A stretch of DNA of 64,000 nt from an uncultured Gemmatimonadaceae bacterium (GCA_964591015.1 CAZPXM010000002.1:4342-68341); one strand, 5' to 3'; counted from the stretch's first letter, positions 6,642 to 10,218 are shown. Numbers and translations are program-made. Notes: generated from the sequence alone by a model not told the origin.

Positions 6642-7796
6642 TCAGGCAGGCGCCGGCGCCGACGCCTGCCCCGGCGCCTTCCGCAGCGTCACGGTGAACG
6701 TGCTGCCCACTTCCGGTTCGCTGTGGACGGTGATCGAGCCGTCGTACAACGCCACCAGCTTCTTCACGATGGACAGCCCCAGGCCGCTGCCAAGCACGGC
6801 GGCGGTCTTCTCGTTCTTGATGCGGACGAACTCGCCGAAGAGCTTGCCGACCTCGGCGGGCGTCATGCCGATGCCGGTGTCCGCCACCGCGATCTGGACG
6901 TGCTGGTCCTGATCGGCAACGCGGACGGTCACCGAGCCGCCGCTGCGGTTGTACTTGACGGCATTGGAGATCAGGTTGTTGAGGATGATCTCGAGTTCGC
7001 CGCGGTCGGCGATGAGCTGCGCCTGCGCCGGCAGGTCGGTGGCCAGCGAGAGCTGGCGTCTGGCCGCCTCCGGCCCGGCGGTCTCGACTGCCGTGGCCAC
7101 CACCTCGCACAGGTCCACCGGCGCCAGCGTCCGCTGCTTGTTGCCCGATTCGATGCGAGTCAGGTCCAGCAAGTCGAAGATCAGCTTGCGCATGCCCTCG
7201 AGGCGCAGGAGGCTGCGGGCCACGATCGCGTCGTATCGGGCGATGTCCTCTCCCAGCGCCCTCTTCTCGATCAGGCGCAGATAGCCCTCCACGGCGGCCA
7301 GCGGCGCCTTCAGCTCGTGGCCGAGCACGCGGATGAACTCGAAGCGGATCTGCCGGCGCTCCTCGGCCAGACGCACGGCCTGGCGGTGGGCCAGCAGGTG
7401 GTGCGCCGCGCGCTGGACCGTGACGCGCAGCTCTTCGGGCGTGAACGGTTTGACCAGGAAGTCGAAGGCGCCGCGCTTGGTGGCCGTGATGACCGTCTGC
7501 AGCGAGCTGTAGGCCGAGATCATGACGGTCAGCACCTGCGCGCCGCGCTCGACGAGCCTGCTCTGCACCTCCAGCCCCGAGATGCCGGGAAGCTTGTAGT
7601 CGAGCAGGAGGATGTCGGGCAGCTCGGCCTCGGTGCGCGCGAGCGCCTCCTCGCCGCTCTCGGCCGTGGCCACCGCGAAGTCCACGGTGGCCTGCAGGTC
7701 GGGGAACTCGGCCACGTGCCGGCGCAGCGCGCGCTCGGTTCCCCGGCGCATGCCGGGCTCGTCGTCGCAGACCAGGATCCGGAGAGTCTCTGGCAT
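6642..7796 (-). CDS. Hybrid two-component protein: N-terminal receiver (REC) followed by HisKA and HATPase_c kinase core
   Basis: The receiver (MPETLRILVCDDEPG...LLLDYKLPG...KPF) precedes an H-box (HELKAPL) and N/G-boxes (NLISNAVKYN, DTGIGM, GSGLGLSIV). The start is the ATG at 7796, 24 nt after the upstream RR. Confidence 0.8.
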   Translation of the reverse strand: MPETLRILVCDDEPGMRRGTERALRRHVAEFPDLQATVDFAVATAESGEEALARTEAELPDILLLDYKLPGISGLEVQSRLVERGAQVLTVMISAYSSLQTVITATKRGAFDFLVKPFTPEELRVTVQRAAHHLLAHRQAVRLAEERRQIRFEFIRVLGHELKAPLAAVEGYLRLIEKRALGEDIARYDAIVARSLLRLEGMRKLIFDLLDLTRIESGNKQRTLAPVDLCEVVATAVETAGPEAARRQLSLATDLPAQAQLIADRGELEIILNNLISNAVKYNRSGGSVTVRVADQDQHVQIAVADTGIGMTPAEVGKLFGEFVRIKNEKTAAVLGSGLGLSIVKKLVALYDGSITVHSEPEVGSTFTVTLRKAPGQASAPAPA

Positions 7797-7819
7797 GGCC
7801 AGTCTCCGCGCGCAGGCGC

Positions 7820-8212
7820 TCAGTGCAGCAGGCGCCGGAGCTGCGCCAGCAGGGTTTCGAACCGCACCGGCTTGTCGAGGACCACATCGGCCTTGACCCA
7901 CGCTCTCTCCTCGGCGGTCACGGCATCGAAGTCGATCCCGGTCTCGCTGGCGACGGCCGTCAGCAGGATGACGGGCAGCTCCGGGCTCTGGCGCTTGAGG
8001 TGGTGCGCGAGCGCGAAGCCGGAGTCGTGCTCCTCCATCATCAGGTCGATCACGGCGGCATCCGGTCGGGCGCTCGCCGCCACCTGGCGGGCCTGCTTGT
8101 CGGAGTGCGCGGTGACCACCCGGTAGCCGGCGGCCTCGAGCTGGACCTGGAGCTCCAGCACCAGGTCCAGGTCATCGTCCACGACGAGTATCGTCTGCGC
8201 GTTCGGACTCAT
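7820..8212 (-). CDS. Stand-alone response-regulator receiver domain (CheY-like, no output domain)
   Basis: A 130-aa REC (ILVVDDD...IDLMMEEHD...KP). Its start ATG overlaps the stop of the upstream HydS-like kinase (ATGA). Confidence 0.8.
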   Translation of the reverse strand: MSPNAQTILVVDDDLDLVLELQVQLEAAGYRVVTAHSDKQARQVAASARPDAAVIDLMMEEHDSGFALAHHLKRQSPELPVILLTAVASETGIDFDAVTAEERAWVKADVVLDKPVRFETLLAQLRRLLH

Positions 8213-10218
8213 CACTCGCCTCTTTCTCCTCTCCGGGGCAGCACGACGGTGAAGACGGTCCCGGTCGGACCGGCGGCAGGGTCGGCGTTGGACTCGCAGT
8301 GGATCGTGCCCCGATGCATCTTGACTATCCCGTACGTCACGGCCAGCCCGAGGCCGGTGCCCTTGCCGATCTGCTTGGTGGTGAAGAATGGGTGGAAGAT
8401 CCTCTCCATGTTCTCGGGCGGGATGCCGATGCCCGTGTCGCGCACCCTGACGGTGATGCTGGCCGCATCGCCCTCCAGGGTGGCGACGACCCTGCCGCCA
8501 GCGGCGGTCGCCGTGTAGGCGTTGGTGATGAGATTGGTCAGCACCTGCACGAACTGATCCTTGTCCAGCTCGGCTGTCGGGTCGGCGATGTGGTCCTCGA
8601 CCGCCATCTCGACCCCGGCGGGCGGTGGCAGGGCGCGCACGGTCTTCTGCAGCAGATCCCGCACGTCGACGGGAGCGCGCACGACGCGGTTCTGCCGCGC
8701 GAAGTCGAGCAGCCCCGAGACGATCTTCTTGCAGCGGTCGGCCTCTTCGGCGATGGTGGCCAGGTCCTCGCGGGACTGGCTGTCGCCCGCCTCTTCGAGC
8801 AGCAGGTGCGCATACATGAGCACCACCCCGAGCGGGTTGTTGATCTCGTGGGCGATGCCGGCCGCGAGCTGGCCCATGCTGGCCAGCTTCTCGGACTGCA
8901 CGAGCGCCTCCTGAGCGCTGGCCAGTTCCTGGTGAGAGGTGTTGAGCTGGTCCACGGTCCGATGCAGCTGCTCGATGGCGTAGGGCAGGCACATCTCGGT
9001 TTCGGCCAGCCCCATGTGCACCGCCGTGGCATGCTCGACGCAGGTGGGGTAGCCGCAGGCGCCGCAGTTGAGCTCGTCCTCGGGACGGAGCTTGCCCATG
9101 CGCGCCAGGATGCTGGCCAGCTGCTGCCGGGAGGGCATGGGCATGCGCTGGTCCTGCACCGCGAAGCCGCGGCTCAGGTTCACGGAGGCACAGCGCTGGA
9201 CCGCCTCGCTCCAGGTCCGCTCGTTCTGCGACCGCAGCCGTTGCCGGACGTACTCGCTCACCCGCGTCCGGCGGGTCAACTGGGTGTCCTTGACGGTCAT
9301 GCCGGCTCCCATGATGCAGCCGTCGCAGCACAGGACTTCGAGCAGTCTGGCGGGCACCGCTTCGGCGGCGAACTCGCGGATCGTCTCGTCGAAGCGGTCG
9401 CTGCCGCCGGCGCTCACCACGTCGTTGACGACCAGATCCTCGTCGATCGCCGCCGCCCGGAGCAGCCCCCGCTTCACCGGGAAGATCGTGCCCAGACCGG
9501 CGTGCGGCGGGTCGAACTCGCCGGAGACGATCTGCGCCGGGTCCAGGGATCTGGCGGCCAGGATCTGCCGCAGTTCGGCGAAGGTCAGCGTCCGGGCCAC
9601 CTCCCCGTGCAGCTCGTCGCTGAGCGCCTCGCGCCGCTTGGCCAGACAGGGGCCGATGAAGACGATCCGGAGGTCCGCGCCATACAGGTGGTGGAGGGCG
9701 CGGGCGCAGGCCACCATCGGCGAGACGATCGGCGCCAGGAAGGGCACCAGCTCCGGGTGGTACTTCTCGACGAAGCACACCACCGCCGGGCAGGTGGTGG
9801 CGATGTAGCTGCGCTGGCGCTCGCGCTCGAGCAGGCGGCGGTACTCCATGGCTACCAGATCGGCGCCGAAGCCTACTTCGCAGACCAGCGAGAAGCCGAG
9901 GGCGCGGAGCATGCCCACCAGGATGCCGGGCTGGTACTCGTGGAACTCGGCAGCGAAGCTCGGGGCGAGGATGGCCGCGGTCCTGCCTGCCGACGCCAGC
10001 AGCTGAAGGGTCTCGTCGGCCGTGCTCGCGGCGACCTTGGCGCGCTGGTTGCACACGCGCACGCAGTTGCCGCAGCCGATGCAGCGCTCGGCGATGACCT
10101 CGGCCTGCCCCTCGCCGATGCGGATCGCCTTGGCGGGACACTCGCGTACGCACTGGTAGCAGGTCCGGCAGCGATCCCGTACTGTCTCGATCAGCGCGAC
10201 GTTGGCGGAACCTCTCAT
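8212..10218 (-). CDS. HydS-like sensory [FeFe]-hydrogenase domain fused to a histidine kinase (2x[4Fe-4S] ferredoxin, H-domain, Cx2Cx4Cx16C, HisKA, HATPase_c)
   Basis: The N-terminus has CRTCYQCVRECP and CIGCGNCVRVC. The H-domain carries degenerate L1 (ATTCP), L2 (GPCLAKRRE) and L3 (EVLCCDGCIMGAG). The accessory motif CGACGYPTC-x16-C follows, then an H-box AHEINNPLGV and N/G-boxes (NLITNAYTAT, DTGIGI, GTGLGL). The start is the ATG at 10218, preceded by GAGGAGG. Confidence 0.8.
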   Translation of the reverse strand: MRGSANVALIETVRDRCRTCYQCVRECPAKAIRIGEGQAEVIAERCIGCGNCVRVCNQRAKVAASTADETLQLLASAGRTAAILAPSFAAEFHEYQPGILVGMLRALGFSLVCEVGFGADLVAMEYRRLLERERQRSYIATTCPAVVCFVEKYHPELVPFLAPIVSPMVACARALHHLYGADLRIVFIGPCLAKRREALSDELHGEVARTLTFAELRQILAARSLDPAQIVSGEFDPPHAGLGTIFPVKRGLLRAAAIDEDLVVNDVVSAGGSDRFDETIREFAAEAVPARLLEVLCCDGCIMGAGMTVKDTQLTRRTRVSEYVRQRLRSQNERTWSEAVQRCASVNLSRGFAVQDQRMPMPSRQQLASILARMGKLRPEDELNCGACGYPTCVEHATAVHMGLAETEMCLPYAIEQLHRTVDQLNTSHQELASAQEALVQSEKLASMGQLAAGIAHEINNPLGVVLMYAHLLLEEAGDSQSREDLATIAEEADRCKKIVSGLLDFARQNRVVRAPVDVRDLLQKTVRALPPPAGVEMAVEDHIADPTAELDKDQFVQVLTNLITNAYTATAAGGRVVATLEGDAASITVRVRDTGIGIPPENMERIFHPFFTTKQIGKGTGLGLAVTYGIVKMHRGTIHCESNADPAAGPTGTVFTVVLPRRGERGE

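Follow-up and report, generated by a model that had tools for sequence, protein, structure and literature searches.

A stretch of 64,000 nucleotides (nt) from an uncultured Gemmatimonadaceae bacterium (GCA_964591015.1 CAZPXM010000002.1:4342-68341), referred to below as the window, contains a minus-strand gene cluster that begins with a rex-like gene and continues with hydC, hydB and hydA. It then runs into hydS-HK, which encodes a sensory-type [FeFe]-hydrogenase module fused to a histidine-kinase transmitter, and into genes for a stand-alone receiver (REC) and a receiver-first kinase (REC-kinase). The features of this cluster are listed here, with the subdivisions of hydS-HK given in amino acid (aa) positions of its product.

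8212-10218, minus: hydS-HK, sensory [FeFe]-hydrogenase module plus histidine-kinase transmitter, 668 aa (single frame, Pfam architecture, full-length homologues at 57-73% identity)
10042-10179, minus: N-terminal 2x[4Fe-4S] ferredoxin motifs, aa 14-59, Cys 17, 20, 23, 27, 46, 49, 52 and 56 (Pfam Fer4 family matches, ferredoxin-type 4Fe-4S)
9304-9981, minus: H-domain, aa 80-305 (Fe_hyd_lg_C, PF02906; CpI-numbered alignment; AF2 and Foldseek)
8983-9072, minus: C-terminal accessory cluster motif C385-x2-C388-x4-C393-x16-C410 (motif; Pfam FeS PF04060, aa 383-412)
8851-8988, minus: predicted helical linker of 47 residues from C410 to the phospho-accepting H457, heptad-phased across the family
8692-8877, minus: HisKA/DHp domain with H-box AHEINNPL and H457 (Pfam HisKA, aa 448-509, E 6e-17)
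8233-8565, minus: HATPase_c catalytic domain with N, G1, F and G2 boxes (Pfam, aa 552-662, E 6e-25)
7820-8212, minus: stand-alone REC, 130 aa, with D12, D13, D56, T85 and K114; its ATG overlaps the hydS-HK stop codon (TGATG)
6642-7796, minus: REC-kinase, REC-HisKA-HATPase_c, 384 aa, with D66 and H160; no further input domain and no histidine phosphotransfer (HPt) domain
10260-11981, minus: hydA, catalytic subunit of a trimeric NADH-linked/bifurcating-type [FeFe] hydrogenase (Pfam; NCBIfam 'NADH-dependent [FeFe] hydrogenase, group A6', 821 bits versus a cut-off of 765)
11994-13955, minus: hydB, Nuo51-like flavoprotein subunit (Pfam; conserved synteny)
13939-14430, minus: hydC, thioredoxin-like [2Fe-2S] subunit (Pfam; conserved synteny)
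14444-15097, minus: rex-like redox-sensing repressor gene, first in the cluster (NCBIfam Rex subfamily, 179 bits versus a cut-off of 126)

Domain structure of the sensor kinase

The region 8212-10218 gives a stop-free translation, and a frame plot of G+C content at third codon positions (GC3) stays at 0.92-0.95 in one single frame along the entire gene, changing frame exactly at the neighbouring genes. This continuity indicates that no frameshift separates the hydrogenase and kinase halves, which therefore form one gene, as had been claimed in a preliminary description of the locus that reported one uninterrupted frame of ~2 kb. Together with the existence of full-length homologues, it rules out a frameshift or two-gene artefact. 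A longer hydS-HK reading frame beginning at 11079 was also ruled out, as part of it runs through hydA in a different frame and the homologues start at the Met encoded at 10218.

A Pfam scan at E<=0.01 found no PAS family in hydS-HK, HisKA following directly after the C-terminal cluster motif, and NCBIfam has no dedicated model for a hydrogenase-kinase fusion, the protein giving only partial, below-cut-off matches to AtoS, ZraS and FeFe_hydrog_B1. Both of the ferredoxin motifs that the preliminary description had written as CxxCxxCxxxCP are present (C17/C20/C23/C27P and C46/C49/C52/C56), although the second ends in CN and not in CP. The degenerate L1 motif ATTCP (aa 140-144), in which the relay Cys is lost, the retained L2 (GPCLAKRRE, aa 189-197) and L3 (EVLCCDGCIMGAG, aa 294-306), and the accessory motif CGACGYPTC-x16-C were found as described there, and the H-box (aa 456-463) and HATPase_c domain make up a complete class I transmitter covalently joined to the HydS-like module.

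The H-domain scores 150 bits against the Fe-hydrogenase profile PF02906 (cut-off 22.1, E 9e-44, profile positions 3-245 of 245), and its cysteines align with the H-cluster ligands, in keeping with the reading of this region from sequence motifs. The H-domain sequence of CpI was rebuilt from a PDB alignment and then aligned to hydS-HK and 80 homologues. These, like the gene-context counts given below, come from the best 80 loci among at least 589 species in which a scan of one genome per species confirmed a hydS-HK relative, and they cover essentially the whole protein. The CpI numbering is correct because positions 299, 300, 355, 499 and 503 are all Cys. The ligands C300, C355, C499 and C503 of CpI correspond to C143, C191, C298 and C301 of hydS-HK, each of which is Cys in 80/80 homologues. 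In addition, CpI K358 is K194 (80/80), P231 is P86 (80/80), S232 is S87 (79/80) and E361 is E197 (80/80). By contrast, the proton-relay residue C299 of CpI is T142 in hydS-HK and T, S, D, N or A in the 80 homologues, with Cys in none; E279 is deleted in hydS-HK and in every homologue; R286 is replaced by L129 (Leu in 72/80) and S319 by A162 (Ala in 71/80). Positions M353 and M497 of CpI are occupied by G189 and L296, which are Gly and Leu, respectively, in all 80.

Biochemistry on sensory-type enzymes is confined to the PAS-type Thermotoga maritima HydS (TmHydS) and the PAS-less TamHydS of Thermoanaerobacter mathranii (PMC8163306, PMC8924675, PMC13104023). The statement in the preliminary description that characterised HydS proteins carry a PAS domain is thus true of the PAS-type proteins, but not of TamHydS, a group D enzyme (PMC8163306). 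Gly at the M353 position is known from TmHydS and Leu at the M497 position from TamHydS (PMC8163306). To judge from the aligned residues, the proton-transfer pathway of group A enzymes is gone from hydS-HK, as it is from the slow HydS enzymes that bind H2, while the predicted cofactor-binding residues are kept, and this combination of relay loss and retained ligands is the signature by which putative sensory (HydS-type) hydrogenases are recognized (PMC8163306).

The accessory clusters are similarly well conserved. The eight Cys of the ferredoxin motifs are invariant among 75 homologues, and the Cx2Cx4Cx16C motif, which has been described for HydS groups C and D (PMC8163306), occurs in 79/80 homologous loci. 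At the level of sequence, hydS-HK retains every residue required for the binding of an H-cluster and of three accessory [4Fe-4S] clusters. An AF2 monomer model of hydS-HK built on 75 homologues is confident for aa 1-410 (H-domain pLDDT about 90+), and Foldseek with this model returned the [FeFe]-hydrogenase structures of DdH, CbA5H and CpI at E 1e-16 to 1e-21.

The segment that joins the two halves shows a constraint of its own. Of 154 family members, 148 have a distance of 47 residues between the last cluster Cys and the phospho-accepting His, while five have 40 and one has 49. Kinase-fused representatives that are more divergent show spacings of 33, 40, 47, 54 or 68 residues (that is, 47 +/- 7n), with only two outliers (48 and 49) when proteins with an inserted PAS domain are set aside. 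This is the pattern expected of a continuous coiled-coil 'signalling helix', suggesting that heptad register, rather than mere length, is under constraint, and the phased linker appears to be the best sequence-level evidence for mechanical control of the kinase by the hydrogenase module. The AF2 model places helices at aa 411-428 and 437-476, at low pLDDT.

On the kinase side, the H-box reads HE[VLIM]NNPL in 80/80 loci, and residues N562, N566, D594, G596, G598, F608 and G620-G624 are invariant among homologues. The hydS-HK transmitter resembles those of ZraS, AtoS and NtrB, and its nearest solved structure is the ZraS cytoplasmic domain (E 3.5e-33), with which AF2 and Foldseek agree. We consider it probable that hydS-HK is a soluble, likely homodimeric sensor histidine kinase with a sensory-type [FeFe]-hydrogenase input, in which a signal, presumed to be H2, is passed to the kinase. 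One could instead regard hydS-HK as mainly a catalytic hydrogenase with a vestigial kinase, as TmHydS and TamHydS keep low H2 turnover in vitro, yet this is scarcely credible given that the proton pathway is lost, the H, N, G1, F and G2 boxes of the kinase are invariant in 75-80 homologues, the partner receivers are conserved, and a dedicated catalytic HydABC enzyme is encoded next door.

A conserved gene order and its receiver partners

Relatives of hydS-HK are numerous and widespread. A protein search returned at least 7970 clusters at E<=1e-10, and the best 120 matches are about 645-720 aa long, cover 96-100% of the query at 57-73% identity and have an identical Pfam set. The nearest homologues (72-73% identity) come from metagenome-assembled genomes, one of them labelled Ca. 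Latescibacteria, and many homologues bear the JGI name 'signal transduction histidine kinase/iron only hydrogenase large subunit-like protein'. Taken together with the high GC content of the window and its proteins with type IX secretion domains (both given below), nearest homologues of this origin hint at an uncultured bacterium resembling the FCB superphylum. The 80 loci span Planctomycetota, Hydrogenedentota, Myxococcota, Acidobacteriota, Lentisphaerota, Fermentibacteria, Fibrobacterota, Bacteroidota, Thermoleophilia, Nitrospirota, Caldisericia and others.

Such fusions have been described before from genomes. For example, HydDB recognizes the groups C1 ('histidine kinase-linked'), C2 ('chemotactic') and C3 ('phosphatase-linked'), all of them putative (PMC5037454). 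In Hydrogenedentota, a group C3 hydrogenase with a PAS or histidine-kinase domain encoded beside bfuABC was named 'BfuT', and C1 proteins with a HATPase_c domain were also described (PMC11406978). Kinase-fused enzymes were likewise reported as group C3 from a Ca. Lernaella genome (PMC9324843) and as group C from lineage V Elusimicrobia genomes (bioRxiv 10.1101/765248), the latter preprint also citing related group C hydrogenases for Caldithrix and Ignavibacterium. Published HydDB assignments of homologues are C3 or C1 (PMC11406978, PMC9324843). These genome-described fusions (Hydrogenedentota, Ca. Lernaella, Elusimicrobia, HydDB C1) have the same architecture as hydS-HK and lie beside a trimeric group A3/A6 hydrogenase with rex nearby, so there is no difference in kind. 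The Hydrogenedentota loci in our set (L009, L020, L029, L043, L063) encode full-length proteins with 56-58% best-segment identity over about 660 residues, in the same gene order. The genome papers only note the fusion, and the REC and REC-kinase partners, the phasing of the linker and the residue-level signature are not in them.

The fusion is therefore a member of a large, already noticed, biochemically uncharacterised family and not a rarity. The literature searched yielded no biochemical characterisation of a kinase fusion, including autophosphorylation or two-component work on sensory [FeFe] hydrogenases; to that extent the earlier assessment of the fusion as uncharacterised stands, but its novelty was overstated, the fusion being very common and noted in genome papers.

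The genes around hydS-HK are conserved as well. When window proteins were compared with the 80 loci by tblastn, with evaluable loci as denominators, hydA was found immediately upstream of the sensor kinase in 60/70 loci, mostly preceded by hydB, hydC and rex; about 10/70 loci have a sensor kinase without an adjacent hydA. Of 69 loci, 66 have the REC-kinase on the downstream side of the sensor kinase, and the stand-alone REC adjoins the sensor kinase in 58/69, one sub-lineage having REC between hydA and the sensor. The gene order rex-hydC-hydB-hydA-sensor kinase-REC-REC-kinase is thus conserved across many phyla. Downstream of this cassette, relatives have hydE in 28 loci, an aspartate ammonia-lyase-like gene in 16 and hydF in 18, the hydE and hydF genes scoring above NCBIfam cut-offs, so that the signalling genes are flanked by the structural genes of the [FeFe] system on one side and by its maturation genes on the other. 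In six loci (L035, L049, L056, L059, L067, L078) a second, divergent hydC-hydB-hydA set (30-46% identity), preceded by a receiver, lies a few kb from the cassette.

In a different explanation, hydS-HK would be a general redox sensor of the reduced ferredoxin/NADH pool or of HydABC flux, in which the H-domain is a scaffold and the accessory [4Fe-4S] clusters equilibrate with cellular reductant, possibly as a docked HydABC subunit according to the 'BfuT' idea (PMC11406978). The tight linkage of the sensor gene to hydCBA and rex, the strict conservation of the three accessory clusters and the published view of the protein as the T subunit of a bifurcating enzyme (PMC11406978) are all consistent with it, as is the failure of the TamHydS C-terminal cluster to respond to H2 (PMC13104023). 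However, retention of the ligands and of the CN-binding second-sphere residues K194, P86 and S87 is not expected of a mere scaffold, some loci have the sensor kinase but no adjacent hydA, and hydE and hydF are co-located in relatives; we regard a general redox sensor as rather unlikely.

In both downstream proteins the phospho-acceptor and catalytic residues are conserved almost without exception. As the preliminary description had noted, hydS-HK lies beside hydCBA and is followed by two receiver-containing proteins without a DNA-binding output; a Pfam scan found no DNA-binding domain in either, and annotation of the neighbours agrees. The pocket of the stand-alone REC is essentially invariant in 69 loci, with D56 and K114 present in 69/69. 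Separated from it by a gap of 23 nt, the REC-kinase has a phospho-acceptor pocket of D11, D12, D66, S94 and K116 in a receiver that resembles those of the NtrC type. This pocket is essentially invariant in 71 loci, the phospho-acceptor Asp and the Lys being present in all, and the Asp pocket, H-box His and ATP-binding boxes are conserved wherever aligned. A GTG at 7901 was considered as the REC-kinase start and replaced by the ATG at 7796 as the most likely one. Since the sole input of the REC-kinase is its own receiver, it must be a downstream relay.

Proposed signalling from H2 to the kinase cascade

In the signalling pathway that we propose for hydS-HK, H2 from the co-encoded HydABC enzyme, or ambient H2, would react at the H-cluster, and a resulting redox or conformational change could travel by way of the C-terminal cluster domain and then along the coiled-coil linker as far as the DHp helix, where it would shift the balance between autophosphorylation of H457 and phosphatase activity. 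The phosphoryl group may then be transferred to the translationally coupled single-domain REC, to the NtrC-like receiver of the REC-kinase, or to both. The REC-kinase would act as a second-tier kinase toward a response regulator encoded elsewhere or toward the stand-alone REC, which in turn might be a cognate acceptor, a phosphate sink or a final protein-binding output. The likely role of the cassette would be feedback control of hydrogen and redox metabolism.

Several observations weigh against this proposal. The sensory role of group C/D enzymes, none of which is known to respond to H2 in vivo, has been termed 'putative' (PMC8924675), and the C-terminal cluster of TamHydS was not reduced under 1 atm H2 (PMC13104023), which speaks against a simple redox relay through that cluster. 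The linker and DHp region have pLDDT <50 in the AF2 monomer model. No HPt family was found by Pfam in hydS-HK, REC or REC-kinase, nor was a conserved HPt-like gene seen downstream in related loci. The term 'phosphorelay' in the preliminary description is therefore not supported, and the three proteins are better viewed as a kinase cascade or branched pathway than as a classical His-Asp-His-Asp phosphorelay. No linked output regulator is present in the cassette of the window, and a terminal output is absent from the cassette in all 80 loci. Within the 64-kb window, hydE, hydF and hydG were not found, no canonical Rex operator (TTGTGAA-N4-TTCACAA) occurs with <=3 mismatches, and the sigma54 -24/-12 pattern gave 12 matches versus a chance expectation of 15, none usefully placed.

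Another possibility is that hydS-HK senses O2, NO or the integrity of its iron-sulfur clusters, so that cluster destruction or oxidation would switch the kinase and guard an O2-sensitive hydrogenase operon. Both [FeFe] H-clusters and [4Fe-4S] clusters are labile in O2, a distinctive state derived from O2 is known from TamHydS, and the NiFe Hox-type enzyme and Hyp maturases encoded in the window suggest changing redox conditions. Nevertheless, hydS-HK has no sequence feature specific to O2 or NO, and slow H2 chemistry is the better account of a relay that is consistently lost while the site for H2 binding is kept; we regard a sensor of this kind as very unlikely. H2-dependent signalling by hydS-HK is better supported than its rivals because the environment of the H-cluster and the chemistry of the kinase are both strictly conserved.

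The sensor module also occurs with outputs other than a kinase. A HMMER search with hydS-HK aa 1-430 against 1.84 billion cluster representatives gave 916 matches at E<=1e-30, and the architectures that follow the module in the best 150 of these were counted, a Pfam scan assigning the class of about 575 aa to PAS-type HydS.

HisKA-HATPase_c: about 46
PAS or GAF, then kinase: 5
PAS only, about 575 aa (classical HydS): about 59
sigma54-interaction AAA+ domain with helix-turn-helix (HTH), some with PAS: 16
GGDEF: 5
End right after the cluster motif: 6

One kinase-fusion representative has a HisKA_3-type kinase. The four ligand Cys are kept in every architecture class, nearly all members have Gly at the M353 position, and most have a residue other than Cys at the C299 position. 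Among individual relatives (P0164, P0183, P0193, P0215, P0177) the module was seen on GGDEF, on sigma54 AAA+ with HTH (with or without PAS), on GAF-GAF-kinase and on HisKA_3 kinases; no mention of sigma54 or GGDEF fusions of the module was found in the literature searched. In a rough neighbour-joining tree, which carries no labelled TmHydS or TamHydS, the kinase fusions form a mostly coherent clade that neighbours the fusions to sigma54 and GGDEF domains and is separate from the clade with PAS only. Among relatives without a kinase, PAS-type HydS proteins are the closest to the sensor module.

Comparison with known systems illustrates what is shared and what differs. PAS-type HydS proteins (group C, M2f: T. 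maritima HydS, Ruminococcus albus HydS, Thermoanaerobacterium HfsB) have the same 2x[4Fe-4S], H-domain and Cx2Cx4Cx16C arrangement, lack the relay Cys, have Gly at the M353 position and are encoded beside a group A hydrogenase (PMC8163306), and representatives are 35-40% identical to hydS-HK over 420 aa. They differ in the presence of PAS and in their proposed use of a separate Ser/Thr kinase/phosphatase (PMC5707799), whereas hydS-HK, which lacks PAS, would signal through its fused transmitter; they also have Ser at the M497 position, where hydS-HK has Leu. TamHydS (group D, M2e) resembles hydS-HK in lacking PAS and in its accessory clusters, its Leu at M497 and an adjacent bifurcating hydrogenase (PMC8163306), but it has Ser at the M353 position and stops after the C-terminal cluster, while hydS-HK has a covalently attached partner. 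The [NiFe] systems HoxBC-HoxJ-HoxA and HupUV-HupT-HupR (group 2b) are alike in principle, with a slow H2-binding hydrogenase acting through a histidine kinase on hydrogenase genes (PMC5707799, PMC5037454). Their metal site and fold are unrelated, however, their sensor and kinase are separate polypeptides, and they use an NtrC-type DNA-binding activator, while hydS-HK has no linked output regulator.

What is new here is the three-protein cassette conserved across phyla, the heptad-phased 47-residue linker, and the occurrence of the sensor module on sigma54 activators and GGDEF proteins. Somewhat more tentatively than our reading of hydS-HK itself, we suggest that sensor kinase, REC and REC-kinase could be an ancient, self-contained H2-responsive cascade that moved with bifurcating-type hydrogenase operons over >12 phyla. 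The sensory [FeFe] module would then be a portable 'H2 input domain' for kinases, sigma54 activators and diguanylate cyclases, with a heptad-phased helix as the connection.

It is a long-standing question if 'sensory' [FeFe] hydrogenases of groups C/D sense H2 at all, the route by which a signal leaves the protein being another, and a 2026 study of TamHydS closes with a call to identify interaction partners (PMC13104023). For hydS-HK, a signalling partner lies within the polypeptide and the next two proteins are encoded just downstream, so the hypothesis is testable by standard phosphorylation assays. If it is true, this built-in output would give the first direct biochemical read-out of H2 sensing by group C/D [FeFe] hydrogenases. 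As one further member of its family hydS-HK itself offers no new principle, and its worth is that of a tractable test case; the value lies at the level of the family, in its conserved cassette of three proteins, its phased linker and its exchangeable outputs. Members occur widely among uncultured anaerobes (Planctomycetota, Hydrogenedentota, Myxococcota, Acidobacteriota, Bacteroidota and others), so the family may represent a common way of tuning H2 production among fermenters.

The hydrogenase operon and other genes of the window

A gap of 41 nt separates the start of hydS-HK from the end of hydA, both genes being on the minus strand. The best PDB matches of the hydA product are the HydA1 proteins of T. 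kivui and A. woodii. Its L1 motif (residues 297-301) is TSCSP, with Ser at the CpI C300 ligand position and the relay Cys retained; the same motif is found in A. woodii HydA1 (PDB 7Q4V) and in 59/65 HydA neighbours of kinase-fused sensors that have a recognisable L1, and a literature text search on TSCSP in HydA returned nothing relevant. The rex-like gene, including the adjoining 15098-15190, is without the N-terminal 'GRLSLYRRLL' helix conserved in Rex of related loci and has an Ala/Gly/Arg-rich stretch instead. A sigma70 promoter scan of 4800-15400 found no promoter-like site, and a terminator scan of the same interval gave terminator-like sites on the plus strand only, with none on the minus strand between hydC and the transporter gene that follows the cassette.

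In place of hydE, the lyase-like gene and hydF, the REC-kinase gene of the window is followed by genes for an SSF sodium:solute symporter (5032-6600) and a TonB-dependent receptor (2687-5170). These were ruled out as parts of the system, as they are not conserved in related loci save L041 and L042. The sole DNA-binding response regulator seen in the window, an OmpR-type protein (REC plus Trans_reg_C; 33387-34307, minus), is encoded 25 kb from the cassette, and no evidence was found tying it to hydS-HK.

A second hydrogenase system (15191-26559, plus) is divergent from rex and includes the following.

15191-17263, plus: HoxE/F-like fusion
17127-17984, plus: HoxU-like protein
within 18052-20031, plus: NiFe large-subunit match
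20572-22815, plus: GAF-histidine kinase
22496-26559, plus: HypF, HypC and HypD

Rnf-type genes (948-2601, plus) encode an RnfA/E-like membrane subunit and an RnfB-like FeS protein that shares the PF04060 'FeS' motif with hydS-HK, and together with both hydrogenases they make the region a ferredoxin/NADH/H2 redox island. Further along the window, which has a GC content of 70.6%, the segment 37837-44467 (plus) encodes large secreted-type proteins with FlgD_ig or CHU_C (type IX secretion) C-terminal domains.

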